Positions 1,216-43,758 of a stretch of 64,000 bases of DNA are shown in pieces (the first letter of the stretch is position 1; the number at the start of each line of letters is the position of its first letter). The DNA comes from Candidatus Dormibacteria bacterium (GTDB lineage: Bacteria > Chloroflexota > Dormibacteria > Aeolococcales > Aeolococcaceae). The position numbers were made by a program, and so were the translations under genes. Below the pieces are notes generated by a model that was given only the letters and a program-made list of their open reading frames with translations, did not search any database and had not been told where the DNA came from. The stretch is taken from contig JBOHUE010000157.1 in the NCBI GenBank assembly GCA_050734185.1, positions 1,430 to 65,429 on the forward strand, in the 5' to 3' direction.

Positions 1216-3402
1216 ATGCCCGCAGGCCGCGACGCCCGCACACGGAAACGCAGAGACACGATCAGCATCGGCGCATCACTGCTTGCGGTCGCGGCGGCCG
1301 TCGTATCGGGACTGTCGAGCACGGCGCTCAGCGCGCACGCGGCGGCGAATGCGAACACCCCTGCGAGCCCGGCGCACGACTCGCCGGCGATCCCGGCGGA
1401 ATGCCAGACCGGGACGGACTTTGTCAGCGTCGCGTGGCAGGGCCCGACGTGTCAGGCGCACGGTAAGTTCGTTGTCCGGTTGCGCAGCGGCCACGCCCTG
1501 ACGGTGGCACCACCCGACACCATTGCGGCGTTCGCCAGTGCTGCCCCGCCGGCCGCGGCAAACCCCGCACCCGCGAGCGGTTCGCTGGCGTGCGTCAACC
1601 CGTCGACGCATACGCACATCGAGCTCTGGTACGCGCACTTCGCCGGTCAGGCCGACAACATCGGCGGGCACGCGAGCGACGTGCAGACGATGTTCCAGCA
1701 GGTCGATTCGAGCTACGTCGACTACGACTCTCGCTACTACAACGGTCCGGACATGCACCTGTACGTGGAGTGCGATTCCTTCGGCAACCCCATCGTCCAC
1801 GACATCGGTCTGTCGACGACACTCAACGGCAGTGACTACTCCACGATCGTGAGTGACATGGAGGGCCAGGGACACTCGAGCAACCTCGCGCACTACTGGG
1901 TGTGGACCGACGGCAATCCCACGTCGGGCTACGCAGGGCAGAGCAGCGTGGTCGGCGACGACTCGGCGGGGTCGGGCAACGCGATCAACTCCACCAACGC
2001 ATATTCGATCAACTACGGATACACCGCGGGCTCCGGAGGCGCGTCGATCTTCGCGCACGAAAACGGCCACGCCATGGGCGCCGTGCAGCTGAGCGCACCT
2101 GACTCCACCGGAGCCTGGCACTGCACCGACGGCCAGGATGTCATGTGCTACAACGACGGCGGTCCCAGCGCGAACGCATTCACCACCGGTGACTGCGCCA
2201 ATTCGCCAATCGGCACTGCACTGCTCGACTGCCATCGCGACAACTACTTCAATCCGTGTCCCGCACCGGGAACCTACCTCTCCGGCCACTGGGACGTCGC
2301 GAGCACCAACAACGCCTGGGTCTCGGTGAACGCGCTGCCGAGTCAAACGGGATTCCAGGGCACGCCACAGAGCGTCATCCACGGGACCAACGCGCTCCTG
2401 ACCGTGTATGTCTACGGGGCGAGCTGCGGCGGCGGCACCGTCACGTTCACGTATGGCGGTGGCACGCTGGGTACGTCAACAGTCGGCAGCAATGGACTGG
2501 CGGCGGTGTCGCTGGCGTCATTGCCGTTGGGCCATTACTCGGTCACCGCGCAGTTCAGCGGCTCTGCATATGCGGCGGCGAGCTCCACGTCATCGCCCGC
2601 GACGTTCGACGTCGTTGCCTCCCCCTTCAAATCCCTCGTGGTCGCGGACGCGTATGGCGGCGTGTTCCCGGCTCAGGCGTCGGCGCTGGGTGTACAGGCC
2701 GACATGTGGCCGGGGTGGGGAATGGCGCGCGGCATGGCCCTGAGCTCTGACGGGAAGGGCGGGTACGTGGTCGACGCCTGGGGCGGTGTGCACCCGTTCG
2801 GCACTGCGCCGCCCGTCACCGGCACCGGCTTCTGGCCTGGGTGGGACATCGCTCGTGGGATTGCGCTTCGCGCTGACGGGAAGAGTGGCTACGTGCTCGA
2901 CGCCTGGGGCGGCCTGCATCCGTTCGGCGCCAGCGGCGACATGCCGCCGTACGTCACCGGGACCACCGGATACTGGGCCGGCTGGGACATCGCACGCGGC
3001 GTGGTCCTGCGGTCGGACGGCGTGAGCGGCTACACGCTCGACGGGCTGGGCGGCGTGCACGCCTTCGGTGGCGCTCCCACCCTGGGCATCTCGGCGTACT
3101 GGCCGGGTTGGACGATCGCGCGCGGATTCACGCTTGACCCGGATGGAGCCGGCGGCTATGTGCTCGACGGTCTCGGCGGGCTGCATCCGTTCGGCAATGC
3201 CACCACTGTCAGCATCTCGGCCTACTGGTCGAGCTGGGACATCGCACGGTCGGTGGTGTCAGTGCCCGGGAACGGATCACAGGGCTGGGTGGTCGATGGA
3301 TTCGGCGGCCTTCATCAGTACGGCGGCGCGCCGTCGCCGGCGGGCTCCCCGGCCGGATACTGGCCTGGCCAGGACACAGCCCGGGCCGTCGCGGCCAGCT
3401 AG
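1216..3402 (+). CDS. secreted metzincin-like zinc metalloprotease with Ig-like domain and C-terminal 42-aa tandem repeats
   Basis: GAGGAA Shine-Dalgarno 6 nt upstream of ATG; signal-peptide-like N-terminus (basic n-region, hydrophobic core, AHA). HENGH zinc motif at nt 2056-2070 followed by Met-turn-like DVMCY; Ig-like TVTFTYGGG...YSVTAQFSG segment; about 5.5 copies of the GYVLDxWGGxHPFG...YWPGWDIARG repeat at the C-terminus. Confidence 0.75.
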   Translation: MPAGRDARTRKRRDTISIGASLLAVAAAVVSGLSSTALSAHAAANANTPASPAHDSPAIPAECQTGTDFVSVAWQGPTCQAHGKFVVRLRSGHALTVAPPDTIAAFASAAPPAAANPAPASGSLACVNPSTHTHIELWYAHFAGQADNIGGHASDVQTMFQQVDSSYVDYDSRYYNGPDMHLYVECDSFGNPIVHDIGLSTTLNGSDYSTIVSDMEGQGHSSNLAHYWVWTDGNPTSGYAGQSSVVGDDSAGSGNAINSTNAYSINYGYTAGSGGASIFAHENGHAMGAVQLSAPDSTGAWHCTDGQDVMCYNDGGPSANAFTTGDCANSPIGTALLDCHRDNYFNPCPAPGTYLSGHWDVASTNNAWVSVNALPSQTGFQGTPQSVIHGTNALLTVYVYGASCGGGTVTFTYGGGTLGTSTVGSNGLAAVSLASLPLGHYSVTAQFSGSAYAAASSTSSPATFDVVASPFKSLVVADAYGGVFPAQASALGVQADMWPGWGMARGMALSSDGKGGYVVDAWGGVHPFGTAPPVTGTGFWPGWDIARGIALRADGKSGYVLDAWGGLHPFGASGDMPPYVTGTTGYWAGWDIARGVVLRSDGVSGYTLDGLGGVHAFGGAPTLGISAYWPGWTIARGFTLDPDGAGGYVLDGLGGLHPFGNATTVSISAYWSSWDIARSVVSVPGNGSQGWVVDGFGGLHQYGGAPSPAGSPAGYWPGQDTARAVAAS
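2638..3399 (+). repeat. in-frame coding tandem repeat, about 126-bp (42-aa) period, about 5.5 copies
   Basis: Repeated protein motif DIARGxxLRxDGxSGYVLDxWGGxHPFGxAP....YWPGW read directly from the translation of 1216..3402; copies differ at DNA level. Confidence 0.8.
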
Positions 3403-3431
3403 GGGCTCCTGAGGGCGGCATACTCCGCCTC

Positions 3432-4838
3432 ATGGCTACCGGCGAGGCCACAGTCCCGGTGCGCCGGGTTGGCCTGCGCGTACGCCTCAGCCCCTCTGCC
3501 GCGGTGCCGGTGCTCGTCATCGTCCTCGGCCTGCTCGCCTACCACCAGATCTACACGGTCTACCGGTTCGACACCCCGGTGCACGGTGACGGCGAGGGCT
3601 ACTACGCGTACCTCCCGGCGTGGTTCTTGTTCCACGACGCGGGCTTCAACTCTCTGATTCGTGATCACCTGCTGCCGGCGTACGCCGCGCTCGGCCATCA
3701 GCAGGCGTCGCAGTTCGGCTTCTCGCTGCAGGCGACCGGCAACTGGCTCGACAAGTACGGGGTCGGCGAAGCACTGCTGCTGCTGCCCTTCTTCGGCATC
3801 GGTCACGCGGTGGCGGTGTTCGCGGGCACGGCGGCGGACGGGTACACGAACGCCGAGGTCTACACGGTCGGTGCCGCGGCACTCGTCTACATGGCGGCGG
3901 GGCTGTTTGCGCTTCGCGCTGTGCTGCGGCGCTGGTTCCCCGAATGGGTGATCGTCACGACGCTGCTCGCGATCACGCTGGGCACGAGCCTCTTCGACTT
4001 CGCCACGTGGGAGTCGTTGGGCAACCATGCCTTCAGCTTCTTCGTGGTCGCGCTGCTGATGCTGGAGGCGTTCCGCTGGTACGAGCGGCCGCGGTCGTGG
4101 ACCGCTCCGCTGCTCATGGGCGCCCTCGCCGGACTGCTGCTCGACATCCGGCTGACCAATGCGGTGCTCCTCATCGCCGTGCCGCTCCTCGGAGTCGGGT
4201 CGGTGAAGCAGCTCCGCACACGCGGGCGGTTGCTGTGGGAGCAGCGTCTCAAGGTTGCAGCGGGGGCCGGCGTTGCGGTGCTGGTGTTCGTGCCGCAGAG
4301 CGTCGCGTGGTACATCGCGACCGGTCATGTGTTCGTCCGGTCGTATCCCGGCGAGTCATTCGACTTCCTGCACCCGCACCTGCTCGAGTCGCTGTTCTGG
4401 TTGCAACCGCACGGGCTGCTGCCGTACGCGCCGGTTCTCACGCTCGCGTTCGCCGGCCTCGTGTGGGCCTGGGTCAAGCGTCGCGACATCGCGCTGCCCG
4501 TCACGGCTGCGTTTCTCCCATTCTGGTACCTGGTGAGCTCGTGGTACGACTGGTCGTATTCGCAGTCATTCGGGCAGCGTGGCTTCATCGACGTGCTGCC
4601 GTTCCTCGCGCTGCCGCTCGCGTTTCTGCTCGCATCACTGCGCGCGCGCTGGGTGCGCGTCGCCGCCGTCGCCGTCACCGGTGTCATGGTGGGAGCAACG
4701 ACCGTGCTGATGGTCGCGTACTGGCAATACCGCGTGGCCGGCAACGGGCTCAACTGGACCGACTACGCGGCCATATTCCGGCACCCGCACCTGCTGTTCG
4801 GCCCGCCGCAGTTCCCCTCGTGGATGCCGCATCCATAG
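3432..4838 (+). CDS. polytopic membrane protein, GT-C superfamily glycosyltransferase-like (PMT/ArnT-like, presumably polyprenyl-phosphate-sugar dependent)
   Basis: About 11 predicted TM helices. First extracytoplasmic loop has acidic motif DTPVHGDGEGYYAYLPAWFLFHD resembling the DE/DEx loop-1 motif of GT39/GT83 enzymes. High GC3. Sits in the glycosylation cluster. Confidence 0.55.
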   Translation: MATGEATVPVRRVGLRVRLSPSAAVPVLVIVLGLLAYHQIYTVYRFDTPVHGDGEGYYAYLPAWFLFHDAGFNSLIRDHLLPAYAALGHQQASQFGFSLQATGNWLDKYGVGEALLLLPFFGIGHAVAVFAGTAADGYTNAEVYTVGAAALVYMAAGLFALRAVLRRWFPEWVIVTTLLAITLGTSLFDFATWESLGNHAFSFFVVALLMLEAFRWYERPRSWTAPLLMGALAGLLLDIRLTNAVLLIAVPLLGVGSVKQLRTRGRLLWEQRLKVAAGAGVAVLVFVPQSVAWYIATGHVFVRSYPGESFDFLHPHLLESLFWLQPHGLLPYAPVLTLAFAGLVWAWVKRRDIALPVTAAFLPFWYLVSSWYDWSYSQSFGQRGFIDVLPFLALPLAFLLASLRARWVRVAAVAVTGVMVGATTVLMVAYWQYRVAGNGLNWTDYAAIFRHPHLLFGPPQFPSWMPHP

Positions 4839-4854
4839 CTACACTCCCACGCCG

Positions 4855-6600
4855 ATGGCCGACGCGCGGCGCGTGAGCCCCGTGCTCATGCGACTTGTCA
4901 GGACGCTGCTGCCGATAGCGCTCTACCTCGGTGTCGCCTTCGCCCTCACCGCAGGCGTCTGGCATGACCCGGCGCACACATGGCCGGGACCGCAGGGAGA
5001 CGTCTACAAGTTCATCGACTTCATGTCGTGGGTGCCGCACGCAATCGCGCACGGCAAGGACCCCTTCTTCATGGGTGTGATCGACTATCCCGACGGCGTC
5101 AACCTGACATGGGAGACGCCCGCGTTGCTCGGCGACGTGCTGATCTGGCCGTTCACCGCGCTCCTCGGGCCGCTTCCCGCATACAACGTGTTCATCCTCC
5201 TGAGCATCACCCTCGACGGGTGGTGCACGTATCTCTGGCTGCGCCGGCATGTGCGCTCACCGTGGGCAGCCGCCCCGGCTGCGCTGCTCATCGCGCTCGG
5301 GCCCTGGGTGGCCGTGCACGCGCAGCAGCTCAACCTCATCTCGTTCTGGCCTCTCCCGCTGATCTTCATGGCGGCCGAGGATCTCCTCCGCGGGGAACGA
5401 AGCCGGGTGTGGACGGGGCTCGTGCTCGGCGTGCTGTTCGCGGTGCAGCTGTACCTCGCCGAAGAGCTCGCGGTCCTGGCCGCCATCGGCCTCGCGCTGG
5501 CGATCGTCGCCACCGTCCTCGCACTCGGCGCGAGCATCCGGCCCGCGATCCCCCGCGTCGTGGCGTCTGGAGCGATCGCGATTGCCACCGCGGTCGTGCT
5601 CACGGCGCCGCTGTTGATCTACCAGTTCAGAGGCCCGCGGCGCATCCACGGCATCATCCACCCCCCTGGTTTTTACGTCACCGACCTGCAGAACTTCCTC
5701 ATTCCCACGGGAGTCACGTGGGCGTGGCCGCAGTCGGTCACCGCGGCGGACGTGGGCGCGTGGAGCGGTCCGAGTGAGGCGGTCGGGTACATCGGCATCC
5801 CGCTGCTGCTGATTGCTCTGTACGCGGTGGTCCGATGGTGGCGCGAACCACTCGTCAGGATCGCCGGCCTGACCATCGCCGCGGCCGCAATCCTGAGCCT
5901 GGGGCCACATCTGCACATCGGCGGGGTCGACACCGGCATCCGCCTGCCGGGCGTGATCTTCAGCCGCCTGCCGCTGCTCGAGAACCTCATCCCGTCGCGC
6001 ATTGCGCTCATCACGGCGTTCGGGCTCGCGTTCCTGCTCGCGATCACGCTGGACCGCACGCTGCTGCGCAATCCGCTGCGCAGCGTGAGCACCGCGCTGG
6101 TGTCGGTTGTCGGCCTCGCCGCCATCGTCTCGATGGTGTCGCAGCTTCCGCTGCCGGCGTCGTCGACATCGATCCCGGCGTACTTCCAACCCGGCGGTGG
6201 CGCGACGCGACTCCCGGCGGGAACCGTCGCGCTGGTCGCACCGTATATCGATGACGGCGCCGTCTCACCCGTCGTCATGCTGTGGCAAGCTGAGAGTGAC
6301 TTTCACTTCGCGCTCACCGACGGTCTCGCCATCACCGCGGATGCGAATGGCAACGCAGCGTTTCTGCCGACGACGCCACTACGTCTGGCGTTCGACCAGA
6401 TCCAGCTCGAGGGCCATCTGCCCGCCGAGACCGCGGCGCTGCGAGAGAGCCTTCTGGCCACGATGCACGCCGACAACGTCAGCGTCATCATCGTCGGCCC
6501 CATGCAGCAGCGCGAGCTCGCGGTGGAATTCATCGACTGGCTCACCGGCCGTACCCCGGTGGACGGGGAGGACGTCAGCGTCTGGAGCGGGCCACCATAG
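4855..6600 (+). CDS. polytopic membrane protein with C-terminal soluble domain, YfhO/GT-C-like putative glycosyltransferase
   Basis: Multiple TM helices over about 400 aa, then a soluble C-terminal domain of about 150 aa. This architecture resembles YfhO-type polyprenyl-P-sugar-dependent glycosyltransferases. Family assignment not verified. Confidence 0.5.
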   Translation: MADARRVSPVLMRLVRTLLPIALYLGVAFALTAGVWHDPAHTWPGPQGDVYKFIDFMSWVPHAIAHGKDPFFMGVIDYPDGVNLTWETPALLGDVLIWPFTALLGPLPAYNVFILLSITLDGWCTYLWLRRHVRSPWAAAPAALLIALGPWVAVHAQQLNLISFWPLPLIFMAAEDLLRGERSRVWTGLVLGVLFAVQLYLAEELAVLAAIGLALAIVATVLALGASIRPAIPRVVASGAIAIATAVVLTAPLLIYQFRGPRRIHGIIHPPGFYVTDLQNFLIPTGVTWAWPQSVTAADVGAWSGPSEAVGYIGIPLLLIALYAVVRWWREPLVRIAGLTIAAAAILSLGPHLHIGGVDTGIRLPGVIFSRLPLLENLIPSRIALITAFGLAFLLAITLDRTLLRNPLRSVSTALVSVVGLAAIVSMVSQLPLPASSTSIPAYFQPGGGATRLPAGTVALVAPYIDDGAVSPVVMLWQAESDFHFALTDGLAITADANGNAAFLPTTPLRLAFDQIQLEGHLPAETAALRESLLATMHADNVSVIIVGPMQQRELAVEFIDWLTGRTPVDGEDVSVWSGPP

Positions 6601-6652
6601 CCGCGACCCTTTCCTATAATTCGCTGCCAATCGCCGGAGCGCAGGAGGCGCA

Positions 6653-7846
6653 ATGACTTTCCCCAACGACATCGTGATCATGGGTGGCTGCGGACACGTC
6701 GGCCTGCCGCTCGGGATCGCGTTCGCCTGCCGCGGTCTTCGCGTGGAGCTGTTCGACACCAATGCCGACGTCGTGCAGATGGTCAACGGCGGGCAGATGC
6801 CGTTTCGCGAGAATGGAGCCGATGGGGCGCTCGCCACCGTGCTGCGCGAGGGTCGTCTGACCGCCACCAGCGATCCCGCGTCGATCGCGCGTGCGGAGAA
6901 CGTGGTCGTGGTGGTCGGCACGCCGGTCAACCGCTATCTCAGCCCCGACATCGAGGCGGTGCCGCGCGCGCTGATGTCCGTCGCGGAACATCTCGTCGAC
7001 GGTCAGCTCATCGTGCTCCGCAGCACGGTGTACCCGGGTGTCACAGCGCTGGTCGAACGGCAGTTGCGCGATGCCAGCGCGTCAGTCGAGGTCTGTTTCT
7101 GCCCCGAACGGATCGCTGAGGGCCACGCGCTGGAGGAGCTGCACCAGCTGCCCCAGATCGTTGCCGCGCGCAGCCCGCACGCGATCGATCGCGCGAGCGC
7201 GCTGTTTCGCCAGCTCACCGATCACATCGTCGAGCTGTCGCCGGAGGAGGCGGAGCTGGCCAAGCTCTTCACGAACACCTGGCGTTACGTGAAGTTCGCG
7301 GCGGCCAACCAGCTGTTCATGATCGCCAACGACCGCGGCCTCGACTTCGAGCGCATCCGCGGTGCGATCACGCACATGTATCCGCGTGCGGCGGACATGC
7401 CCGGCCCCGGATTCTCCGCCGGCCCCTGCCTGTTCAAGGACACGATGCAGATCGCTGCATTCTCGGAAAACACGTTCACGCTGGGTCATGCCAGCGTCAT
7501 GATCAACGAGGGACTGCCGCTGTACGCCGTGGGTAAGCTGGAGCAGCGCTTCGACCTGTCGACGATGACGATCGGCATCCTCGGGATGGCGTTCAAGGGC
7601 GGCTCGGACGACACACGGGCGAGCCTCAGCTACAAGCTGAAGCGGCTGCTCAAACTCAAGGCTCTCGAAGTCCTCTGCACGGATCCCTACGTGTCGTCGG
7701 ACGACGACCTGACGCCGCTCGACGACGTGCTCGCGCGGGCGGACCTGCTCATCGTCGCGACGCCACACCCGGAGTACGCGGCGCTGCAGCCGGGCGTTCC
7801 CGTCGTCGATCTCTTCAACATTCTGGGACAGGGCGTCGTCATTTGA
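6653..7846 (+). CDS. nucleotide-sugar dehydrogenase (UDP-glucose/GDP-mannose dehydrogenase family)
   Basis: N-terminal Rossmann IVIMGGCGHVGLPLG; catalytic-region motifs FCPERIAEG and GFSAGPCLFKDT (equivalents of NPEFLxEG and GGSCFPKD); C-terminal UDP-binding domain. Confidence 0.85.
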   Translation: MTFPNDIVIMGGCGHVGLPLGIAFACRGLRVELFDTNADVVQMVNGGQMPFRENGADGALATVLREGRLTATSDPASIARAENVVVVVGTPVNRYLSPDIEAVPRALMSVAEHLVDGQLIVLRSTVYPGVTALVERQLRDASASVEVCFCPERIAEGHALEELHQLPQIVAARSPHAIDRASALFRQLTDHIVELSPEEAELAKLFTNTWRYVKFAAANQLFMIANDRGLDFERIRGAITHMYPRAADMPGPGFSAGPCLFKDTMQIAAFSENTFTLGHASVMINEGLPLYAVGKLEQRFDLSTMTIGILGMAFKGGSDDTRASLSYKLKRLLKLKALEVLCTDPYVSSDDDLTPLDDVLARADLLIVATPHPEYAALQPGVPVVDLFNILGQGVVI

Positions 7847-8598
7847 AGCCGCGCGTCTCGGTGGTCGTTCCCGTGCACAACGAGGGCGACGGCGTCACTG
7901 CGTTTCTCGAGCGACTGTTCGAGGCGCTGTCGCTTCCGGCTGAGGTGCTGTGCGTGTACGACGGCCCCGAGGACACCACGCTGCCGACGCTGCACCATGT
8001 TGCGCAACGCGAGCCGCGCTTGCGCGCCGTGCACAACACGTACGGGCGCGGCCCGGCGAACGCCATCCGCTTCGGCATCGACAACGCCATCGCGGATGTG
8101 GTTGTGGTCACGATGGCGGACGGCAGTGACGATCCGATGCAGATCGACCCCCTCACGCGGCTCGTCGAACGTGGCGTCGTGGTGGCGTGCGCCTCACGCT
8201 ACATGCGCGGGGGGCAGCAGGTGGGCGGCCCGTGGCTCAAGGGACGCATCTCGCGCACCGCAGGCGTCTCACTGCGGGTGTTCGGCAGAGTCGGGACGCA
8301 CGACGCCACCAACTCGTTCAAGGCGTATTCGCGAGCGTTCGTGCGCAAGGTCGGCATCGAGTCGGATGCGGGGTTCGAGATGGGACTCGAGATGGTCGCC
8401 AAGGCACGCCGGCTCCGGCTCCCGGTTGCCGAGCTGCCCACCATCTGGCTGGACCGTACGGGCGGTGTGTCCAACTTCAAGGTGCGCGCGTGGATGCCCC
8501 GCTACCTGCGCTGGTACTTGTATGCACTGGGGATGGGCAGGACGGACGCGCGCCGCGGCACGCAGCCGGACAGTTCTCTGGAGGCGGCGTCAGAGTGA
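7843..8598 (+). CDS. GT2 glycosyltransferase, polyprenol-monophosphate-sugar synthase (Ppm1/DPM1/CsbB-like)
   Basis: ATGA overlap with upstream gene; VSVVVPVHNE start and DGSDD (DxD-type) motif; about 250 aa, typical of the Ppm1 catalytic domain. Confidence 0.8.
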   Translation: MKPRVSVVVPVHNEGDGVTAFLERLFEALSLPAEVLCVYDGPEDTTLPTLHHVAQREPRLRAVHNTYGRGPANAIRFGIDNAIADVVVVTMADGSDDPMQIDPLTRLVERGVVVACASRYMRGGQQVGGPWLKGRISRTAGVSLRVFGRVGTHDATNSFKAYSRAFVRKVGIESDAGFEMGLEMVAKARRLRLPVAELPTIWLDRTGGVSNFKVRAWMPRYLRWYLYALGMGRTDARRGTQPDSSLEAASE

Positions 8599-9620
8599 GC
8601 ACAGTCCTTGTCACGGGATCGTCCGGGTTCATCGGCGGGTACGTCGTCGAGGAGCTGCTGGCCCGCGGCCACAGTGTGATCGGCATCGACAACGAGTCGA
8701 AGTACGGTCCGGTGTCCCGCTCCTACGACCAGCACAGCAACTACCGCCTCATCCGCGGCGATGTCCAGGACACAGCGCTGATGCGCGACGCGCTCGCCGG
8801 CTGCGATCACCTCATCGCCGGTGCTGCGATGATCGGCGGGATCTCGTACTTCCACACGTACGCGTATGACCTCCTCGCAACCAACGAACGAGTGATCGCG
8901 TCGACGTGTGACGCAGCCATCGACGCCCATCGGAACGGCAGGCTGCAGAAGGTCACCTACCTCAGCTCGTCGATGGTCTTCGAGTCCGCCGACCGCTGGC
9001 CCTCGTACGAAGGCCAGGAGCTCGAGGTCCCGCCGCCGAAATCGTCGTACGGCTTTCAGAAGCTTGCGGTCGAGTTCTTCGCGCGCGCGGCGCACCGTCA
9101 GTACGAGGTGCCGTTCACGATCGTGCGCCCCTTCAACTGCGTCGGCGTGGGCGAGGGACGGGCGCTCGGCGAGGTCGAGATCCTGAGCGGCAACGTGAAG
9201 CTGGCGATGAGCCACGTCGTGCCCGACCTGGTGCAAAAGGTGTTGAAGGGGCAGGATCCGCTGCACCTCCTCGGCGACGGCAGCCAGGTGCGTCACTACA
9301 CGTACGGCGGCGACCTGGCCAAGGGCATCGTCACCGCGATGGAGAGTCCTGCGGCGCTCAACGAGGACTTCAACCTCTCGACGCGCGACTCGACGACGGT
9401 GCTCGAGTTGGCCGAACAGATCTGGCGGCGGGTCCGGGGTGACGCGGTGCCGTTTCGCTACGTGTCGGATCCACCGTTCGAGTACGACGTGCAGCGCCGC
9501 GTCCCCGCGGTGGACAAGGCGGAGCGTGTCCTGGGGTTCGAGGCCACCACCACGCTCGATGAGATGCTCGACGAGGTGGTGCCGTGGATCGAGAGCGCCG
9601 TGGCAGCCGGCGCCATCTGA
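8595..9620 (+). CDS. NAD-dependent epimerase/dehydratase (extended SDR, UDP-sugar 4-epimerase/decarboxylase-like)
   Basis: GTG start at 8595 overlapping the upstream TGA (GTGA). The track ORF 8187..9620 is a 5' over-extension that overlaps the GT2 gene. Motifs VLVTGSSGFIGGYV (GxxGxxG) and SSYGFQK (YxxxK). Confidence 0.8.
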   Translation: MSTVLVTGSSGFIGGYVVEELLARGHSVIGIDNESKYGPVSRSYDQHSNYRLIRGDVQDTALMRDALAGCDHLIAGAAMIGGISYFHTYAYDLLATNERVIASTCDAAIDAHRNGRLQKVTYLSSSMVFESADRWPSYEGQELEVPPPKSSYGFQKLAVEFFARAAHRQYEVPFTIVRPFNCVGVGEGRALGEVEILSGNVKLAMSHVVPDLVQKVLKGQDPLHLLGDGSQVRHYTYGGDLAKGIVTAMESPAALNEDFNLSTRDSTTVLELAEQIWRRVRGDAVPFRYVSDPPFEYDVQRRVPAVDKAERVLGFEATTTLDEMLDEVVPWIESAVAAGAI

Positions 9621-9621: not shown

Positions 9622-10911
9622 TCAGGCCGGCTGTGCGCTGCCGATGACCGCGTCGTCGGCCCGCGGCGCCTGGGTCGCGAACACCTCCCAGTCGAGACCC
9701 AAATCGTACTGGCCGGGCCGTCCCAGGTCATCGTTGACGCGGAACTCGAAGGATTGGTCCAGCCAGTCGTAAACGGTGGAGCCGGACTCGTTGTGCAGTC
9801 CGATGGTGGCGCGGTAGGTCCCCGTGAGGAACCGCAGTGCGTCGAGCTTGAACCGGAACACCGCGCCCTGGCCCGCCCGCAGCTGCGGCACCACGACGTT
9901 CGCCAGCTTCGTGTTGATGCCGCCGATGATCGAACCGTCGGCGCGATGCAGGCCGATGCCGACAATGGTGTCAGACACGTCGCGGTTGGCCTCGGCGGTG
10001 ATCTGGATCGTCATCGGCTCACCGGTGGTGAAGCTGACGTGCGGTTCGCCGTCGGCGCCGAGAAACCGCACGCTCTGCACGCGAATATCGCCGCTGCCCC
10101 AACGGCTGTCGCTGGGGCGGACATCGCTCAGGTCGACCAGGCTGCCACCGGACTCACGCCGCTCGTCGTCCTGCAGCTGGCCGATCAGCCGGTGATACCG
10201 AGCGGTCACGTCGGCGGCGTGCCCGTCCTCGACCACCTTGCCGTGCTCGAGCATGATCGCGCGGTCAGCGTAGAGCTCGACCGAGCTGAGGTCATGCGTC
10301 ACCAGGACGATGGTGCGTCCCTGGCGGCGGTAGTCGTTGAAGACGTCAAGGCATTTCGCCTGAAACCGCGCATCACCGACGGCGAGCACCTCGTCCATCA
10401 GAAGAATGGCCGCGTTCGCCTGGATGGCGACAGTGAACGCGAGGCGTACATGCATGCCCGATGAGAAGTTCTTCAGCTTCGTGTCGGCGAACTGATCGAG
10501 CTCGGCGAAGTGCAGCATCTCCTCCATGCGAGCCGAGAGGTCGCGTCGCGCGAGGCCGAGGATCGCGCCGTTGAGGAGCACGTTCTCGCGCGCCGTGAGC
10601 TCGGGATTGAAGCCCACGCCGAGCTCGAGAAAGGGCGACAGCTTGCCGTTGATTACCACTTTTCCGGTGGTCGGACGGTAGATGCGTGCCAGCATCTTCA
10701 GCAGCGTCGACTTGCCGGAGCCGTTGCGCCCGATGATGCCCATGAACTCGCCCTCGTGCACGTCGAAGCTCACGTCGTCGACCGCCAGAAGCGGGCGATA
10801 TCGCGAGGTGCTGCGCATGTGCACCACGCGGTGCTTGAGGGTGGCGCTCTTGTCGAGCGGTATGCGAAACCGCTTGGTCACGTGGCTGGCGGAGAGGGCG
10901 AGGTCGCTCAC
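9622..10911 (-). CDS. wzt: ABC transporter ATP-binding protein Wzt with C-terminal Wzt_C-like carbohydrate (chain-terminus) binding domain
   Basis: GTG start at 10911 overlaps the permease stop (GTGA). Walker A GIIGRNGSGKSTLL, signature FSSGMHVRLAF, Walker B ILLMDEVLAVGD. About 170-aa C-terminal beta-rich extension typical of Wzt/TagH. The upstream part of track ORF 9622..11865 is an out-of-frame artefact over the permease gene. Confidence 0.85.
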   Translation of the reverse strand: MSDLALSASHVTKRFRIPLDKSATLKHRVVHMRSTSRYRPLLAVDDVSFDVHEGEFMGIIGRNGSGKSTLLKMLARIYRPTTGKVVINGKLSPFLELGVGFNPELTARENVLLNGAILGLARRDLSARMEEMLHFAELDQFADTKLKNFSSGMHVRLAFTVAIQANAAILLMDEVLAVGDARFQAKCLDVFNDYRRQGRTIVLVTHDLSSVELYADRAIMLEHGKVVEDGHAADVTARYHRLIGQLQDDERRESGGSLVDLSDVRPSDSRWGSGDIRVQSVRFLGADGEPHVSFTTGEPMTIQITAEANRDVSDTIVGIGLHRADGSIIGGINTKLANVVVPQLRAGQGAVFRFKLDALRFLTGTYRATIGLHNESGSTVYDWLDQSFEFRVNDDLGRPGQYDLGLDWEVFATQAPRADDAVIGSAQPA

Positions 10912-11738
10912 AGGCTTTCGGCGAACGTCGGTGATAGCCAGCGGAACGTGAAGAGGCCCAGGACCAATAGCCCGATCGACAATGCAACCGGCACGGCGGC
11001 GAGAGCGTGGACCGACGCGATGCTGGACGCTGCGTCGGGCACGACGATGACGTGGCGCACGTCCTCGATGATCTGTGCGACCGGGTTGATGAAGAACAGG
11101 CCGTGGAAGCGCACCGGGACCAGCGTGATGGGGTACACGATCCCCGACGCGTAGAAGATGACCTGCGTGAGGATCTCCCAGATGTGTCCCAGATCGCGAT
11201 AGAACACGAACAGCGAAGCGAGCAAGAGCGAGAGTCCGAGCGAGAGCACGTAGAGCTCGAGCACGAGCGGAATCGCAAACAGTGAGCGAAGCCCGAGCTG
11301 GAGATGCCCCAACGGTGCAGCCACGACGACGATGAGCGTGAGGTTGATGACGAACGTCATCGCGGCGGTCATCGACGAGGCCACCACCAGTACCCAGCGC
11401 GGGAAAAACGCCTTCTGGATGAGACCGGGGTTGCCGGCGATCGAGCTCATCGCGGTGCCCGTGCACTCGGTGAAGAACGTGAAGATGACGATGCCGACCA
11501 GAAGTTGCACGGCAAACTCGTGCGCACGCTGTTTGAACAGCACCACGAAGATTGCGTACATGATGCTGAACAGCATCGCCGGCTTCAGCAGCGACCAGAG
11601 ATAGCCCAGCACGGACCCCGTGTACTTGAGCTTGAACTGCGTCCAGGCGAGCTCTCGAATCAGCGCGGCGTTGCGGGCGAAATCCGAGAAGCGGTCCGCC
11701 ACCGGTGGGCGCGCGCCCACTCGTGCGAGCACACTCAT
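10908..11738 (-). CDS. wzm: ABC-2 type polysaccharide exporter permease Wzm
   Basis: 276 aa with 6 TM helices; ABC-2 signature region FKLKYTGSVLGYLWSLLKP; translationally coupled to wzt. Confidence 0.85.
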   Translation of the reverse strand: MSVLARVGARPPVADRFSDFARNAALIRELAWTQFKLKYTGSVLGYLWSLLKPAMLFSIMYAIFVVLFKQRAHEFAVQLLVGIVIFTFFTECTGTAMSSIAGNPGLIQKAFFPRWVLVVASSMTAAMTFVINLTLIVVVAAPLGHLQLGLRSLFAIPLVLELYVLSLGLSLLLASLFVFYRDLGHIWEILTQVIFYASGIVYPITLVPVRFHGLFFINPVAQIIEDVRHVIVVPDAASSIASVHALAAVPVALSIGLLVLGLFTFRWLSPTFAESL

Positions 11739-11762
11739 GGCGGGCCAAGTGTACCAGGCAGG

Positions 11763-12974
11763 CTATTCGGGAGCAGCCGGCGCATGAGCGATCACCGCGT
11801 AGTCCTGCGGACCGAACAACACGTCGTTGAGCCGCGACAGCGCGACATTGATGTTCGTCGCCCACTCGGGAACGTCGCCGTCCGGCAGCAGCGGCAGATG
11901 GTATGCGGACGCCGGCGCGAAGTACCGAATCTCGACGTCGCGAAAGCCGGCTCGCTCGCAGAGAAAGATCAACAGCAGCGGGTGCAGCGGGCGCACGTGC
12001 GTGGGGTCGAGCACATACGAGTTGCCGAGCACGATGAGCGACGAAGGATTCGGTGTCTCGGCGATGAAGACGCCGCCGGGCTTGAGCCGCGAGACGGCGA
12101 GCTCGAGCAGCTCGAGCAGCTGCTCGAGCTGGAGATGCTCCACCACCTGCATGGAGACGACTGCACCGTACGTGTTCGGCGGAGCCATGCGCAGAGTGTC
12201 CACCGCGTCTGCCAGGCGAACGTTGCGGCCGAGCGCTGTCGCTTCGGCAACTGCGTCCGCACTCAGGTCGACACCTTCGGCGTCGATTCCTTCCGCCGCG
12301 AGCAGAGCCACGAGCTCACCCCGGCCGCATCCGACATCAATGACCGGGGCGTGATTGCGCAACACGCTGAGATAGCGTTCGCGCTGCGCGCCGGTGATCG
12401 TGTCCGAGTCGCCGCGGAACCGCCGCTCGAAGCCGGCGTAATCGAACCCGCTCGATCCCGCAGGCATCGGGGCAGCCGCCGCCGCGGCCGGAGCCGTCGC
12501 ACTCGGAGGCTCCGGCGTGGATTGCATGATCCGCCGCGTCCGCCGGTCGATGTCGTTGATGCGCTGGCGCAGCTCGCCCATGCGCACGCTCGCCCCCGAG
12601 AGCCCAGCGGTGGGCGCTATCGCGTCGCCGAGGTCGTTGAGAACGGCGAGCAGCGACCGCATCTCGGCCTTGTGCAGCTCCTGGTTGATCGTCAGCTCGC
12701 GCACCTGTCGCTCCGAGTCGCGCAGCGAGGCCCCGAGCTCCTGCTCGGCACTCGCCACCGCGGTGTGCGCTGCTGCCTCAGCTGCGCCGTCGACGTACCA
12801 CGCGATGCCGCGCCGGATTACACGCTTCAGCTGCGTCTTGGCAGCACCCAGTGGGGGCAGCGGCCGGCGCGCCGGGACCACATCGGGCGCGGCGTCGGTG
12901 GGACGGGTGACCGCCATGCGTTGCCGCAGGCGTTCGAACGCCTCGGGGTCGAGATACGCGGGCCGTCTTCGCAT
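11763..12974 (-). CDS. class I SAM-dependent methyltransferase with N-terminal coiled-coil (candidate WbdD-like chain terminator)
   Basis: N-terminal approximately 130 aa heptad/coiled-coil-like; C-terminal MTase motif I VIDVGCGRGELV and post-I VVSMQVVEHL; immediately upstream of wzm-wzt. Confidence 0.7.
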   Translation of the reverse strand: MRRRPAYLDPEAFERLRQRMAVTRPTDAAPDVVPARRPLPPLGAAKTQLKRVIRRGIAWYVDGAAEAAAHTAVASAEQELGASLRDSERQVRELTINQELHKAEMRSLLAVLNDLGDAIAPTAGLSGASVRMGELRQRINDIDRRTRRIMQSTPEPPSATAPAAAAAAPMPAGSSGFDYAGFERRFRGDSDTITGAQRERYLSVLRNHAPVIDVGCGRGELVALLAAEGIDAEGVDLSADAVAEATALGRNVRLADAVDTLRMAPPNTYGAVVSMQVVEHLQLEQLLELLELAVSRLKPGGVFIAETPNPSSLIVLGNSYVLDPTHVRPLHPLLLIFLCERAGFRDVEIRYFAPASAYHLPLLPDGDVPEWATNINVALSRLNDVLFGPQDYAVIAHAPAAPE

Positions 12975-13838
12975 TCAGGACGCGACCACAAACGGTTTGA
13001 GCGCGAGGCGAGCACGTCGACGGACCATCGCCGATTCCGGGGTGTTCAATGCGTCGAGCGCTGACTCGACGCGCATCAGCGAAAGCAATTCGGGCGAGCC
13101 GAGCAGGCCGAGCGCGGTCGCGACCCGGGCGCCGACGTTGCGGCGACCGCGACTCGACTCGATCAACCGCCGCCCCGAGCGGCTGAGCGCGGCGGCCCGA
13201 GGCATATCGCCCGCGACGTGCAGCGCGAGGTCGGCGAGCTGGTCGTCGAACCCGACCTCGACGTCGACACCCGGGCGCGCCCCGATGCGCTCGGCCGAGA
13301 GGCTGTCGGTGACGGTCGGCGCGGCCCACGCCAGCGCCTGCGTGAGCCCCTCGCCGATCGCAATGCATGCAGAACAGACGGTCAGCGCCGGCGCCAGCCC
13401 GCCGGCGGGGATGCTGTCCGTGCGCAGATCGACGACCATGCGCTCGGGCAGGCCCTCGCGGCGGCGGATTCGCGCCCGGACAAACGGGGCCACCGGAGGG
13501 ATCGCGTCGACATCGATGCCGCCGTCCGGGGGGATCAGGACGGCGCTGCGGTCGCGGGCAAGGTCGGCGTCGCCCGTGAGGAGCAGCGTCGCGGGCACCC
13601 CCACGGCACTGTCGGGATCCTCGTCGTCGATCCACATGGCAACGGGCTTGCCCGAACTCAGCGCCGCCGCCAGGCCGAGCGCGCGTGGTGAGGAGGCGAT
13701 GTAGGCAGCCGGGACACTCTCAGGCTCGACGAACAGCGGTGTCGCCCAGCGGCCGAGCTCGCGCAGCAGCCAGGCGAAATTCGGAGGGGGATCGGGCGCC
13801 GCGAGCACGCCGAGCAGCGGCAGCTGCGGGGAGCTCAT
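12975..13838 (-). CDS. hypothetical protein (possible degenerate GT-B C-domain)
   Basis: Strong GC3 bias in this frame; ATGA overlap with the upstream GT4 gene and abuts the methyltransferase start. No confident domain recognised; alternate-frame ORFs 12517..13704(+) and 12778..13635(-) judged artefacts. Confidence 0.45.
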   Translation of the reverse strand: MSSPQLPLLGVLAAPDPPPNFAWLLRELGRWATPLFVEPESVPAAYIASSPRALGLAAALSSGKPVAMWIDDEDPDSAVGVPATLLLTGDADLARDRSAVLIPPDGGIDVDAIPPVAPFVRARIRRREGLPERMVVDLRTDSIPAGGLAPALTVCSACIAIGEGLTQALAWAAPTVTDSLSAERIGARPGVDVEVGFDDQLADLALHVAGDMPRAAALSRSGRRLIESSRGRRNVGARVATALGLLGSPELLSLMRVESALDALNTPESAMVRRRARLALKPFVVAS

Positions 13839-14875
13839 CCGGCCAGCCGGCCCGCTGCCCGCGAAGCTCCCAGGAGCGCGTCGACGACGTCGTCCCAGTT
13901 GAGTCCGTTGGCGCGCCGCCGTCCCGCCTCGCCCAGGCGGCGCGCCAGATCGCGATCCGCGTCCAGACGCGCGATCGCCTCGGCAACGTGGTCAGGGCTC
14001 CCGTCGGTCACCAGGCCGGTCACGCCGTCCTCGACCCACTCGAGGACACCGCCGGAGTCGCGAGCGGTGATCACCGGCTTGCCGGAGAGGAACGCCTGCA
14101 GCGTCACGTAGCCGTAGTCCTCCTCGTGAGGCAGGTAGACGACGGCGAGCGCGCCGGCAAATCGAGCGATGAGATCCTCGTCGTCGAGAAAGCCGGTGAT
14201 CTCCAGCCGGGGTCCAAGCCGCAGGCGCTCGGCGGCGGCGCGGATCGCGGGTTCCAGCGACCCGGGACCGGTGAGCACGCCGCGGACGCCCGAGGGACAC
14301 CGCGCCAGCGCCTCGACCAGCAGCTGCGGGCGCTTGTTGCGCTCGAGGCGCATCGGGGCGAACACGTAGTCGCCAAAGGGCCCGGAGTGCAGTCGATCGG
14401 ACAGGGGTGGCGGATGGTACAGGGGTGTCGAGCCGAGCCCGTTGAAACGCAGCAGCCGCTCGCTGACGACGTGCGAGGTGGTGAACACGCGCTCCGCCTC
14501 CTCGAGGGCTCGCGTGTCCCAGTCCGTCATCACCTGCTGCGCCTCGAGCGAGTCGTCGTCGGTGCCGATGTCCGACCACGACGAATCGGCCGCGTCATAG
14601 AGCGCCCGATGTTGGTGAAAGAGCCACACAACCTTGTCGGGATGCGTCGCGAAGTACGAGGGAAAGTTCGTGCAGATGACGAGGTCGGCGTCAAGTGGGA
14701 GCAGACGCCACGCAAGCGCAGCGTCAAAGATCCGCACTCTGTCCCACGCGACCGGCAGTCTGACAAGCTCCGCCTCATGCCGGGCCCTGCCGAGCGCGGT
14801 CACGAGGTTCTCCATGTGCATCTCGGCGCCACCGCGCATGAACGGCTTTTGCGCCCCGCAAACGAGAATCCGCAT
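13835..14875 (-). CDS. GT4-family glycosyltransferase
   Basis: Real start taken at the internal ATG (MRILVCG, nt 14875; alternative ATG at 14902). The 407-aa track ORF start at 15058 would overlap the divergent gene. GT-B C-domain with FLSGKPVITARDSGGVLEWVEDGVTGL. Confidence 0.75.
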   Translation of the reverse strand: MRILVCGAQKPFMRGGAEMHMENLVTALGRARHEAELVRLPVAWDRVRIFDAALAWRLLPLDADLVICTNFPSYFATHPDKVVWLFHQHRALYDAADSSWSDIGTDDDSLEAQQVMTDWDTRALEEAERVFTTSHVVSERLLRFNGLGSTPLYHPPPLSDRLHSGPFGDYVFAPMRLERNKRPQLLVEALARCPSGVRGVLTGPGSLEPAIRAAAERLRLGPRLEITGFLDDEDLIARFAGALAVVYLPHEEDYGYVTLQAFLSGKPVITARDSGGVLEWVEDGVTGLVTDGSPDHVAEAIARLDADRDLARRLGEAGRRRANGLNWDDVVDALLGASRAAGRLAG

Positions 14876-14922
14876 CCTGCTCTCTGTACTCGCGGGCATC
14901 ATAGAGACTTTCCGCGTCAGCG

Positions 14923-16188
14923 GTGCACAATCCAGAGGAACCAGTGGTGAACGAATCTCGCCCCTACGGCCGCATCGGCTTCGTGGCCCCGCGGTTCGGC
15001 GAACGCGTCGTGGGCGGCGCCGAAGCCGTGCTGCGCGAGGTGGCGCAGGGCTTTGCACGCCGGGGCTGGGATGTCGAGGTCCTCACCACCTGCGCGCGAG
15101 ACCACTTCACGTGGGCAAACGAATACGCGCCGGGGACGGAGCGAGTCGGAGATCTCACGGTGCGGCGATTTCCCGCGGTGGTGTCAACCGCTCGCAGGGA
15201 CCGCGCGCGCATCGAAGCGGCCATCCTCGCTGGCGACACGGTGAGCGTCGAGGACCAGCAGTGCTGGGTGAACGACGACCTGCGAGTCCCCGAGCTGTTC
15301 CATCATCTCGTCGACCACGCTCAGGACTATCGCGCGCTCGTGTTCGCTCCGTACATGTTCTGGACGACGTTCGCGGGCGCGCAGGTGGCTCCCGAACGCA
15401 GCATCTTGATGCCCTGTCTGCACGATGAGGCCTATGCCCGGCTCGACATCTTCCAGCCGGTGTTCTCCGGATGCGCAGGCGCGTGGTTTCTCTCCGACCC
15501 CGAGCATGCGCTCGCGCATCGTCTGTTCACCGTCCCCGGCCGCCATGAGGTCGTGGGCTCGGGCGTGCGCGTGCCTGCGACCTATCAGCCGGAACGCTTT
15601 CGCGAGCGACACGGCATCCGCGACCGCTTCGTGCTGTTCGCAGGGCGCCGCGAGGGTGGTAAGGGCTGGGAGCTGATGCTCGACGCATTCGCCCGCGCCG
15701 TGCAACGGCATTCGCTTCCCTTCTCGCTGGTGACGATGGGCACCGGCATCGTGCATCCACCGGAGTCGATCCGCGACCGGGTGATCGATCTGGGATTCCT
15801 CGACGACGAGGACCGCGACGACGCCTTCGCGGCGGCCGATGCATACATTCAGCCCTCACCGCATGAGAGCTTCTCGCGAACCATCATGGAGGCCTGGCTG
15901 GCGGGAACGCTGGTCATCGCCAACGGCGCCAGTGAGGTTGTTCGCTGGCACTGTGATCGGTCCGGAGCGGGGCTGACGTACGACGACGACGTTGAGCTCG
16001 GTCAGTGTCTCGCGTTCGCCGCAGAGTCACCGCAGAGCGCAGCGGCACTGGCCGGCCGCGGACGCGCATACGTCCTGGCGCATTACGCGCCCGACGCGGT
16101 GTTGCAGCGGCAGGAGGACACAATCCTCAGCTGGTTTCCCGCGACCGGCTCGGTGCCGGCCCAACGGCCCGATGAGGCGATTGCGTGA
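14923..16188 (+). CDS. GT4-family glycosyltransferase
   Basis: EX7E motif region ESFSRTIMEAWLAG; N-terminal RIGFVAP. The start may instead be the GTG at about 14948 (GAGGAA SD upstream), which would leave a roughly 70-bp divergent promoter region. Confidence 0.75.
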   Translation: MHNPEEPVVNESRPYGRIGFVAPRFGERVVGGAEAVLREVAQGFARRGWDVEVLTTCARDHFTWANEYAPGTERVGDLTVRRFPAVVSTARRDRARIEAAILAGDTVSVEDQQCWVNDDLRVPELFHHLVDHAQDYRALVFAPYMFWTTFAGAQVAPERSILMPCLHDEAYARLDIFQPVFSGCAGAWFLSDPEHALAHRLFTVPGRHEVVGSGVRVPATYQPERFRERHGIRDRFVLFAGRREGGKGWELMLDAFARAVQRHSLPFSLVTMGTGIVHPPESIRDRVIDLGFLDDEDRDDAFAAADAYIQPSPHESFSRTIMEAWLAGTLVIANGASEVVRWHCDRSGAGLTYDDDVELGQCLAFAAESPQSAAALAGRGRAYVLAHYAPDAVLQRQEDTILSWFPATGSVPAQRPDEAIA

Positions 16189-33409: not shown

Positions 33410-33837
33410 GAGCTCGGCGACGGCGCCTCAGGATCCGGCTGGCACAGCTCGGTGAGCACCCCGGCACCGGCGGACGGATGCAGGAAAGCGACCAGACGGC
33501 CCGCGGCGCCGTGACGCGGGCACGTGTCGAGCAGGCGCAACCCGAGTCCGGCGAAGCGATCGAGACTCTGCTGCACGTCATCGACGGCATACGCGACGTG
33601 GTGCAGACCGCCGCCCCGCTTGGCGACAAAGTTGGCGATCTTGGAGTCGGGACGTGTGCTGCCGAGGAGCTCGATTCGCGATTCGCCCACCTGGAACATC
33701 ACGGCCTCGATGCCGTCACTCTCGACCCGATCTCGGTGAGACGGGGCTGAATCGGTGAGCTCCGCGTACGCCGCCACCGCGGCGTCCAGATCCGCGACAG
33801 CGATGCCGATGTGATCAATACCGTTGAACGAGGCCAT
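33406..33837 (-). CDS. methylmalonyl-CoA epimerase (VOC/glyoxalase fold)
   Basis: 143 aa, HIGIAV...ELL...GGGLHHVAY metal-ligand pattern; only the last 143 codons of track ORF 33406..35157 are real. Confidence 0.85.
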
Positions 33838-33930
33838 CCTCGACCGAGTATAGGCAGCCGCTGTTTGACGGGGCTGCAACGATCCGGCCCGGCGAATCCC
33901 CGCGCGAGCGCCGCTCAATACGATCGTCCC

Positions 33931-39617: not shown

Positions 39618-40422
39618 GCGTCAGCCTCCTACGATCCTCGCGTCCGGGCCACGCGGTCGGTCATACCGCAAACGATCGTCCCTGCGTCAGCGCCATCGGG
39701 CCTGGCCCTGAGCTTGTGGCCCGTGCGGACTCGGCGTTAGTGGGCTCGAAGCGTGGTATCGGGAGGGACCATCGCAAGCTTGCGATCTGGGGATCGACTG
39801 AGCGAGTGGAGGATGAGCACGGCCGTACCGCCGCTGGGCCGTCCTGACGGCGCCGGCAAAGCTGCTGTCGTCGATGTCTGGGAGAAACGCACCAGGTTGT
39901 TCAATCCGCTAAACGGACGCCGCTGAAAAGGCCCAGGAGGCTCGGAACGAGGACGAGTCCATGTCACAGACCTTGGCTCGGCGGGCCCTGTCCGCTCGCG
40001 CCGGACAAGCGGTCAGCATCCGCGATGACACGGCACTGGGTGGAACCATCACGTAGTCGTGGGTGGGCCTATCGGCTGGCGCTCGACATTGCTGCGTGAG
40101 CTGGCGGAGCTCTACTCCGGCCTCGACCGTAAATCCGCACCGCCTCCCGCTATAGGAAGAATTCGCTTCTTTTCCATTAGTCGACCCTCCGAGGCGAGAA
40201 TCCATAGCGGGGCGGTCGCAGGGAGACCAGACTCCCTCCACTGGGGGCTGTTTGCGCCGCGCAACAGTGGCCCTGGCAAGCCGGCCCGCCAACCAGGCCA
40301 TCCACACCCAGGCGGGCGCCCAGGACCTGCGCGACCACAAAAGAAGCGTTGCTACACGAACGGGTGTTCGCTTATCCTAGCGGTGCCTAGCATCCAGCTT
40401 TGGAGACGTCACTTTTCTTGCC

Positions 40423-43729: not shown

Positions 43730-43758
43730 TCCTCCACACGGAGCTCTCCGTATCCATA

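Follow-up and report, generated by a model that had tools for sequence, protein, structure and literature searches.

A putative lipid-linked-sugar glycosylation module beside a glycan-export cluster in Candidatus Dormibacteria

We analysed a stretch of 64,000 nucleotides (nt; the window) from contig JBOHUE010000157.1 of a Candidatus Dormibacteria bacterium (assembly GCA_050734185.1), where a gene for a family 2 glycosyltransferase (GT2) shares an operon with genes for two polytopic membrane proteins, here called A and B. All three open reading frames (ORFs) are present as originally predicted, at 3432-4838 (A), 4855-6600 (B) and 7843-8598 (GT2). The window is high-GC DNA, and the GC content at third codon positions (GC3) of the three genes is 0.87-0.88, a coding-type codon bias typical of the real genes of this genome. 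Each also has a 100% database match, in a Candidatus Dormibacteria metagenome-assembled genome, and between tens and thousands of homologs. They are part of a tight co-directional operon at 1216-9620, the glycosylation core of which is 3432-9620. The span described in the original prediction takes in a dehydrogenase gene at 6653-7846 that it did not mention, and it ends just short of another gene of the same unit, the short-chain dehydrogenase/reductase (SDR) at 8595-9620. The operon reads as follows:

1216-3402, + strand: secreted metalloprotease-like protein, the first operon gene, with a Big_3_5 match (1e-12), a weak Reprolysin_5 match and five C-terminal repeats of ~43 amino acids (aa)
3432-4838, + strand: A, predicted GT-C fold glycosyltransferase of 468 aa, borderline for the DUF6541 family; candidate catalytic residue D53
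4855-6600, + strand: B, predicted GT-C fold glycosyltransferase of 581 aa, DUF6311-like and remotely related to YfhO, with a C-terminal alpha/beta domain (~430-581) predicted to lie outside and D49 as the candidate catalytic residue
6653-7846, + strand: nucleotide-sugar 6-dehydrogenase of 397 aa with three UDPG_MGDP_dh Pfam domains; first gene of the cassette discussed below
7843-8598, + strand: GT2 of 251 aa without a membrane helix, of the DPM1/GtrB/ArnC class; predicted polyprenyl-phosphate sugar synthase
8595-9620, + strand: GalE-like extended SDR of 341 aa (PF01370, 8e-41) with a GTG start; third cassette gene

From 1216 onward, the intergenic gaps are 29, 16 and 52 nt in gene order. The two remaining junctions are 4-nt overlaps, TTGA between the dehydrogenase and GT2 genes and GTGA between the GT2 and SDR genes, with the SDR starting at 8595. 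The operon converges on genes for Wzt and Wzm, which are followed by methyltransferase and GT4 genes.

The GT2 matches PF00535 far above the family cutoff (75.1 versus 23.3 bits, residues 6-170). When it was compared with all PDB sequences, the five best distinct matches were Pyrococcus PfDPMS (3e-14, residues 4-227), three GtrB sequences from Synechocystis (4e-10) and ArnC (9e-6), and the first GT2 of another kind came next, at 7e-5. The alignment extends beyond the Pfam GT2 core, to PfDPMS residue 244. Judged by best similarity, the GT2 thus belongs with the polyprenyl-phosphate glycosyltransferases, as the original assignment to a DPM1/Ppm1/CsbB-like class had it, and it is a member of no curated equivalog. 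Its sequence places it in a subtype without transmembrane (TM) segments, as found in the catalytic domain of mycobacterial Ppm1 (PMC3485146). The invariant residues are D40, D93, D97, R119, D154, K160, R164, GFE177-179 and R205; of these, D93, R119, D154, K160, R164, GFE177-179 and R205 are kept even in a paralogous group with 23-30% identity. Translation from the TTG codon at 7843 begins with MKPRVSVVVP. We prefer this start to that of the public 245-aa annotation because the resulting N-terminus agrees with those of homologs.

A has ~11 hydrophobic segments and B has ~11-12. The DE-like loop motif that had been noticed in A is D53-G-E55, in the loop after TM1, where D53 is invariant among 40 homologs and E55 is the majority residue only; D53 opens the motif DGxGYYAY[LI], where the first helix beyond TM1 begins. 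In B, D49 is conserved in at least 90% of 45 sequences (it is invariant in 20) and occupies, in the models, the same position relative to TM1 as D53 of A. AlphaFold models built with 40 and 45 homologs as input reached pLDDT (predicted local distance difference test) values of 93.9 for A and 92.5 for B, with a pTM (predicted template modelling score) of 0.92 for both. Residues ~430-581 of B are modelled as a mixed alpha/beta soluble domain, in agreement with the C-terminal soluble domain first proposed. Pmt4, Pmt2 and oligosaccharyltransferases are among the top structural matches of A and B, and the best matches of B include the oligosaccharyltransferases STT3B, AglB and PglB. Structural alignments to solved mycobacterial GT-C enzymes have only 10-15% sequence identity. 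Both N-termini are basic, which suggests an N-in topology and would therefore place the loop with the conserved Asp outside. By modelled fold, A and B are thus GT-C enzymes, as originally proposed, and neither was classified as a transporter or as another non-GT protein.

By sequence, the two proteins lie outside GT39, GT83 and YfhO, so that the original description of PMT/ArnT- or YfhO-type enzymes holds for the fold but not for family membership. Neither PF02366 (PMT) nor MIR matched A, B or any of 85 family members at E ≤ 0.1. PF13231 (PMT_2, GT83 ArnT) was absent from A and B and matched weakly in 2 of 40 A-family and 2 of 45 B-family members. Likewise, PF09586 (YfhO) was absent from B and weak in 4 of 45 relatives (best E 0.003); matches of family members to PMT_2, YfhO and GT87 are in general scattered and weak. 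The B-family profile nevertheless aligns with a YfhO-annotated protein at E 1e-12, which indicates that B is a remote relative of YfhO rather than a member of that family. A barely exceeds the DUF6541 threshold (30 bits, cutoff 29), and the family matches only 12 of 40 relatives of A. B has no match in the current Pfam library, and many of its homologs carry precomputed PF19830 (DUF6311) assignments and some DUF2079 assignments. It has no WWDYG-type motif and has a conserved C-terminal motif, MLWQAE. hhalign detects a distant relationship between the A and B families (probability 89.6%, E 2e-6). Searches of A, B and their family profiles against the sequences of solved structures found no detectable relative; only the fold comparison was informative. 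The A family comprises 5,739 sequence clusters at E ≤ 1e-30 from Bacteroidota, Chloroflexota, Actinomycetota and other phyla, and a literature search on DUF6311, DUF6541 and DUF2079 found no paper. Three predicted metagenomic proteins (P0320, P0318 and P0413) join YfhO/B-like and A-like GT-C domains, in both orders. They could be gene-calling artefacts; if they are real, the A and B families work as a pair.

The dehydrogenase, GT2 and SDR genes form a cassette. The dehydrogenase scores 270.7 bits against TIGR03026 (cutoff 189.8), and its closest solved structures are the UDP-ManNAc (uridine diphosphate N-acetylmannosamine) dehydrogenases 4r16 and Cap5O. For the SDR, the closest are 8vr2, 6wj9/6wjb, GalE and 6zl6, and it is predicted to be an epimerase, or possibly a decarboxylase. 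Because the GT2 is translationally coupled to both of these genes, the donor sugar is probably not mannose, and the O-mannosylation that the original prediction had raised is unlikely. A uronic-type sugar is the likelier product, and we put the chances at about even that it is a hexuronic acid, an N-acetylhexosaminuronic acid or an epimer of one of these.

The cassette (DH-GT2-EPI, where EPI is the SDR) recurs with the same order, sizes and overlapping frames in seven other loci (L004, L167, L168, L169, L170, L171 and L172). Compared with the window, the dehydrogenase is 61-72% identical, the GT2 72-77% and the SDR 72-79%. An eighth locus, L166, has the order DH-EPI-GT2 and 49-68% identity. 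In six of these eight loci, recognised GT-C genes of differing families lie within ~5 kb of the cassette. The genes near it are as follows, with the window listed first for comparison:

Window: A and B
L004: two copies of B
L166: B, immediately behind Wzm-Wzt and in one operon with it
L168: two GT87 genes
L171: two GT87 genes
L170: one GT87 gene; also an unclassified polytopic protein in which DDEG follows TM1
L169: a YfhO protein ~5 kb away; unconfirmed candidates are a 515-aa protein just under the PMT_2 cutoff (25.5 versus 26.1 bits) and an unclassified polytopic protein encoded immediately behind the SDR gene
L172: none recognised, one unclassified polytopic protein only
L167: none

Polytopic proteins of 562 aa (L166), 440 aa (L169), 609 aa (L170) and 668 aa (L172) were considered as members of the A or B family and rejected; they fall outside both and are kept as unclassified candidates. 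The recurrence of the cassette beside changing GT-C genes is the strongest evidence that the product of the GT2 is the donor for the GT-C enzymes, that is, a polyprenyl-phosphate sugar. It also speaks for a sugar supplied by the dehydrogenase and the SDR.

A second, paralogous cassette with 23-30% identity to that of the window flanks orthologs of A in L001, L006 and L007. In L007, the same five-gene set as in the window occurs in another order, as an EPI-GT2-B-like-A operon with the dehydrogenase divergent alongside. We searched the window for a second copy of the dehydrogenase, GT2, SDR, A or B and found none. In L168, L170 and L171, the GT87 genes immediately precede the orthologous cassette, flanked by a carboxyltransferase gene and pdxS/pdxT. 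The window keeps the same flanking genes (30134-31801 and 59307-63702) without the cassette, which sits instead in the Wzm/Wzt cluster, and this suggests that the cassette has relocated. Orthology of the GT87 gene in the window, 25 kb from the module, with these cassette-linked GT87 genes was not detectable.

Beyond the operon, the following genes of the window bear on the fate of the sugar:

9622-10899 (start approximate), - strand: Wzt, the ATPase of an ABC (ATP-binding cassette) transporter, with a C-terminal carbohydrate-binding domain (ABC_tran, and Wzt_C at 1e-26)
10908-11738, - strand: Wzm-type ABC-2 permease of 276 aa with ~8 hydrophobic segments and 56% identity to the gene ahead of Wzt in L166, which matches PF01061 (ABC2_membrane)
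11763-12974, - strand: class I methyltransferase with a helical N-terminal half; NCBIfam methyltransferase models cover residues ~200-310
13835-15058, - strand: GT4 with Glycos_transf_1 / Glyco_trans_1_4 matches
14923-16188, + strand: GT4 with the same matches
16185-17609, + strand: GT4 with the same matches
20251-21408, + strand: fourth GT4
33811-35358, + strand: GT87-family GT-C glycosyltransferase of 515 aa (PF09594, 1.6e-17), perhaps a third enzyme to draw on this lipid-linked donor

The Wzt also matches NCBIfam models for teichoic-acid and galactan export ATPases at 1e-47 to 1e-51, below their cutoffs. The Wzm/Wzt-methyltransferase-GT4 set is orthologous to the clusters of L004 and L166. 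Its three GT4 proteins at 13835-17609 are predicted to build a polymer in the cytoplasm and have 72%, 64% and 52% identity to GT4 proteins of L004. The methyltransferase domain has a homolog in L166 that is part of a fusion with a GT4, and in L004, B adjoins GT4, methyltransferase and rhamnose genes. Wzt_C and the methyltransferase (9622-12974, - strand) resemble the arrangement of WbdD and Wzt in Escherichia coli O9a, where a terminal cap controls chain length and export, and the methyltransferase is a possible chain-terminating cap enzyme. Since B immediately follows Wzt in L166 and the cluster of the window is orthologous to those of L004 and L166, we favour the exported glycan as the acceptor of B. 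The balance is about level on whether the Wzm/Wzt-exported glycan is indeed the acceptor.

Three secreted enzymes of the window share a ~43-aa repeat (GYVLDGxGGxHPFG...YWPGWDIARGxxL) in 5-10 tandem copies, with no Pfam match:

2600-3400: repeat region in the metalloprotease-like/Big_3_5 protein (1216-3402, + strand)
17567-18300: repeat region in an FG-GAP protein (17567-20113, - strand)
22260-23650: repeat region in a CHAP protein (21508-23730, + strand)

The same repeat is found on GH18, M23, C39-like and Reprolysin-like proteins beside homologous clusters (L001:1-4957 and L166:13064-21651). The repeat possibly serves as an anchor that binds wall glycan, or else is a target of glycosylation, and the product of 1216-3402 itself may bind the polymer or be glycosylated. 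The secreted repeat proteins contain no Ser/Thr-rich disordered stretch, with a maximum S+T fraction of 0.33-0.37 per 30 residues.

Some other features of the window lie outside the operon and its neighbouring cluster. Directly after the glycan cluster, 23887-25638 (- strand) encodes a coupling protein of type IV secretion (T4SS-DNA_transf, TraG-D_C), a hint that a conjugative element is close by. At 28980-30122 (+ strand), outside the cluster and adjoining an AI-2E family transporter gene, there is an Acyl_transf_3 membrane acyltransferase of 380 aa with ~8 TM segments, which could O-acetylate a glycan. The region 40000-54100 is an island of low GC content (58-63%, compared with ~68-70% elsewhere) that encodes a cytidine-deaminase-domain protein, two HNH_2 endonuclease-domain proteins and a 1572-aa Sacsin + NOV_C protein. 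It looks horizontally acquired and is perhaps defence-related.

We propose that the operon encodes a lipid-linked-sugar glycosylation module, in which a donor made by the GT2 is used outside the membrane by GT-C enzymes, and we regard this general mechanism as probable on the basis of sequence comparison and modelled folds. Given their family membership, the 6-dehydrogenase and the GalE-like SDR would convert UDP-hexose or UDP-N-acetylhexosamine into an unusual nucleotide sugar, most likely a hexuronic or N-acetylhexosaminuronic acid or its 4-epimer. The GT2, to go by its closest relatives and its synteny, would then place this sugar on polyprenyl phosphate at the cytoplasmic face. The enzyme would be bound to the membrane peripherally, as is the catalytic domain of mycobacterial Ppm1. 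A putative flippase would carry the lipid-linked sugar across the membrane. Outside, A and B would transfer the sugar to acceptors by means of the Asp in their first outside loop, an activity to which the fold and the conserved residue point; that their donor is lipid-linked is suggested by their synteny with the GT2 cassette. As acceptor we favour the glycan that the GT4 enzymes are predicted to build and Wzm/Wzt to export; the sugar would be added to it as a side chain or as a primer after export.

Several observations weigh against this proposal. The NCBIfam models for PgfS, ArnC, haloarchaeal dolichyl-phosphate hexose transferase and AglJ match the GT2 at 22-33 bits, against cutoffs of 325-529. 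The GT2 has no hydrophobic segments and so lacks the membrane anchor of GtrB, ArnC and PfDPMS. At the canonical D-x-D site it has M-A-D, with only the second Asp (D93) present, and invariant; the GT2 of the paralogous cassette has D-A-D at this site. Distant homologs in the A (27-42% identity) and B (30-38%) families mostly have no cassette within 10 kb. Note that this search depended on tblastn thresholds and on the 10-kb range, that many contigs are short and that donor synthases are often unlinked. Because orthologs of A elsewhere flank their own paralogous cassette, the donor of A may here be made outside the window. Alternatively, the product of the dehydrogenase and SDR could go to the cytoplasmic GT4 enzymes. 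Furthermore, the window contains no small ORF of 3-4 TM segments with a coding signal and no GtrA/GtcA, MATE or Wzx candidate for the flippase. The original prediction had suggested a search for a GtrA/GtcA-type flippase in the neighbourhood and drawn a parallel with three-component systems; of these components, the synthase and the GT-C enzymes are seen, but not the flippase. The polytopic proteins of the window are A, B, the GT87 protein, the AI-2E transporter, the acyltransferase_3 protein, Wzm, a CCG/Fe-S protein and the type IV coupling protein, with one further 88-aa ORF of 3 TM segments at the window edge. A 287-aa gene at 12975-13838 was rejected as a flippase candidate, having no Pfam match and failing the scan of the window for polytopic ORFs, and so were small ORFs beside the cassette in L004 and L167, which have no hydrophobic segments.

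The acceptor could instead be protein. A and B would then carry out O-glycosylation of the Pgf or Ppm/Pmt type on the secreted metalloprotease-like, FG-GAP and CHAP proteins of the cluster. The gene content mirrors the pgf operon of Streptococcus mutans (PMC12041528), PgfS is among the NCBIfam matches of the GT2, the first gene of the operon encodes a secreted protein, and secreted proteins with the ~43-aa repeat occur in or beside homologous clusters in three genomes. Pmt4, Pmt2 and the oligosaccharyltransferases also rank high in the fold comparison. Nevertheless, we consider this reading unlikely, as the secreted proteins lack a Ser/Thr-rich disordered stretch, B lies directly after Wzm-Wzt in a single operon of L166 and beside GT4, methyltransferase and rhamnose genes in L004, and the cassette pairs with GT87 in loci without secreted repeat proteins (L168, L170 and L171). 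Note that protein and polymer acceptors are not mutually exclusive, and both readings can hold.

A more distant alternative is that the GT2 is an ordinary cytoplasmic enzyme extending a lipid-linked polymer, and that A and B use a polyprenyl-diphosphate-linked glycan, acting as a polymerase, ligase or oligosaccharyltransferase that joins the finished glycan to wall, lipid or protein. The missing membrane anchor, the missing first Asp of D-x-D and the scores below all curated family cutoffs would fit such a GT2, and STT3B, AglB and PglB among the best structural matches of B, together with its position directly after Wzt in L166, would fit such a B. However, the five best distinct PDB sequences are all polyprenyl-phosphate glycosyltransferases, with an alignment that reaches PfDPMS residue 244; the cassette accompanies GT-C genes with no polymer-building GT4 or Wzm/Wzt nearby (L001, L168, L170 and L171); and B has MLWQAE at its C-terminus rather than a WWDYG-type motif. 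We therefore find this alternative improbable. That A and B are not enzymes at all but transporters or scaffolds sharing the helical-bundle architecture of GT-C proteins would suit the lack of sequence-detectable relatives among solved structures, and we give it hardly any credence beside the GT-C fold of both models.

If the proposed GT2-to-GT-C mechanism is right, a likely activity would be assigned to two large families that are labelled only as domains of unknown function. The proposal makes a testable prediction, namely that a lipid-linked sugar donor is conserved and is consumed by enzymes acting outside the membrane, and the cassette can serve as a marker for GT-C enzymes that current family models miss. 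Because the GT2 (72-77%) and SDR (72-79%) are so similar across the loci sampled, we tentatively raise a broader idea, itself rather doubtful: that the cassette defines a previously undescribed donor of a lipid-linked acidic or unusual sugar, a core and lineage-wide feature of the Dormibacteria envelope that feeds interchangeable GT-C enzymes of at least four families, of which the DUF6541-like and DUF6311-like ones lack a characterised member. Such a donor would be comparable in role to mycobacterial decaprenyl-phosphate-arabinose and would provide the first functional handle on a GT-C family of >5,700 sequence clusters. Candidatus Dormibacteria are abundant soil bacteria known here from metagenome-assembled genomes only. 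A literature search found no paper on Dormibacteria envelope glycans and nothing relevant on a Dormibacterota glycosyltransferase.

The module is a variant of the known strategy of pairing a polyprenyl-phosphate sugar with GT-C enzymes (Gtr, CsbB/YfhO, Ppm/PpgS, Pgf and GT136) and not a new kind of system. Its distinctive features are a synthase without TM segments that is firmly embedded in a dehydrogenase-SDR cassette, two GT-C enzymes of uncharacterised families, no visible flippase and interchangeable neighbouring GT-C genes. GtrA/GtrB/GtrC, CsbB/GtcA/YfhO, GacI/GacL and Citrobacter GT136 resemble the module as proposed here, in that a polyprenyl-monophosphate sugar is made in the cytoplasm and transferred outside by a GT-C enzyme to a finished glycan. 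GtrB and CsbB have one or two membrane helices, whereas the GT2 of the module has none. Unlike the three-component systems, the module has two GT-C genes from families without a characterised member and no flippase gene in the window, and a dedicated dehydrogenase and SDR are fused into its unit. The likeness to Citrobacter GT136 goes further: this GT-C enzyme, which has an extra outside domain and is accompanied by an auxiliary epimerase, modifies an O antigen exported by an ABC transporter (PMC11127046). However, its donor synthase is a phosphoribosyltransferase and that of the module is a GT2.

In mycobacteria, Ppm1, with a TM-less catalytic domain, works with Ppm2 to feed GT-C mannosyltransferases, and PpgS, with Rv3632 and Rv3779, serves polyprenyl-phosphate-GalNAc (N-acetylgalactosamine) (PMC3485146). 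Mycobacterial AftA primes a galactan exported by Wzm/Wzt and is thus a parallel for modification after export in the module (PMC3485146). In contrast to these systems, no gene for a Ppm2- or Rv3632-like membrane partner is seen in the module, and its cassette suggests that the sugar is neither mannose nor arabinose. The Streptococcus mutans Pgf system (PgfS, PgfE, PgfM1 and PgfM2; PMC5856776, PMC12041528) shares with the module one GT-A/GT2 enzyme, one epimerase, two GT-C enzymes and candidate secreted substrates alongside. PgfM1 and PgfM2 are bona fide YfhO-domain proteins, whereas B is a remote YfhO relative and A is unrelated by sequence. Pgf acceptors are Ser/Thr-rich disordered regions, of which none was found in the secreted proteins of the module, and the module has a dehydrogenase in addition to the Pgf-type gene set. 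In the Rgt system, bactoprenyl-phosphate-galacturonic acid is made by the GT2 RgtE and used by GT-C-type enzymes outside the cytoplasmic membrane. The acceptor there is the lipopolysaccharide core or lipid A of a diderm bacterium, which differs from the module. Regardless, Rhizobium RgtE and RgtA-D/F (named in PMC7663294) set a precedent for a lipid-linked uronic acid donor, the kind of sugar that the neighbouring genes suggest for the module.

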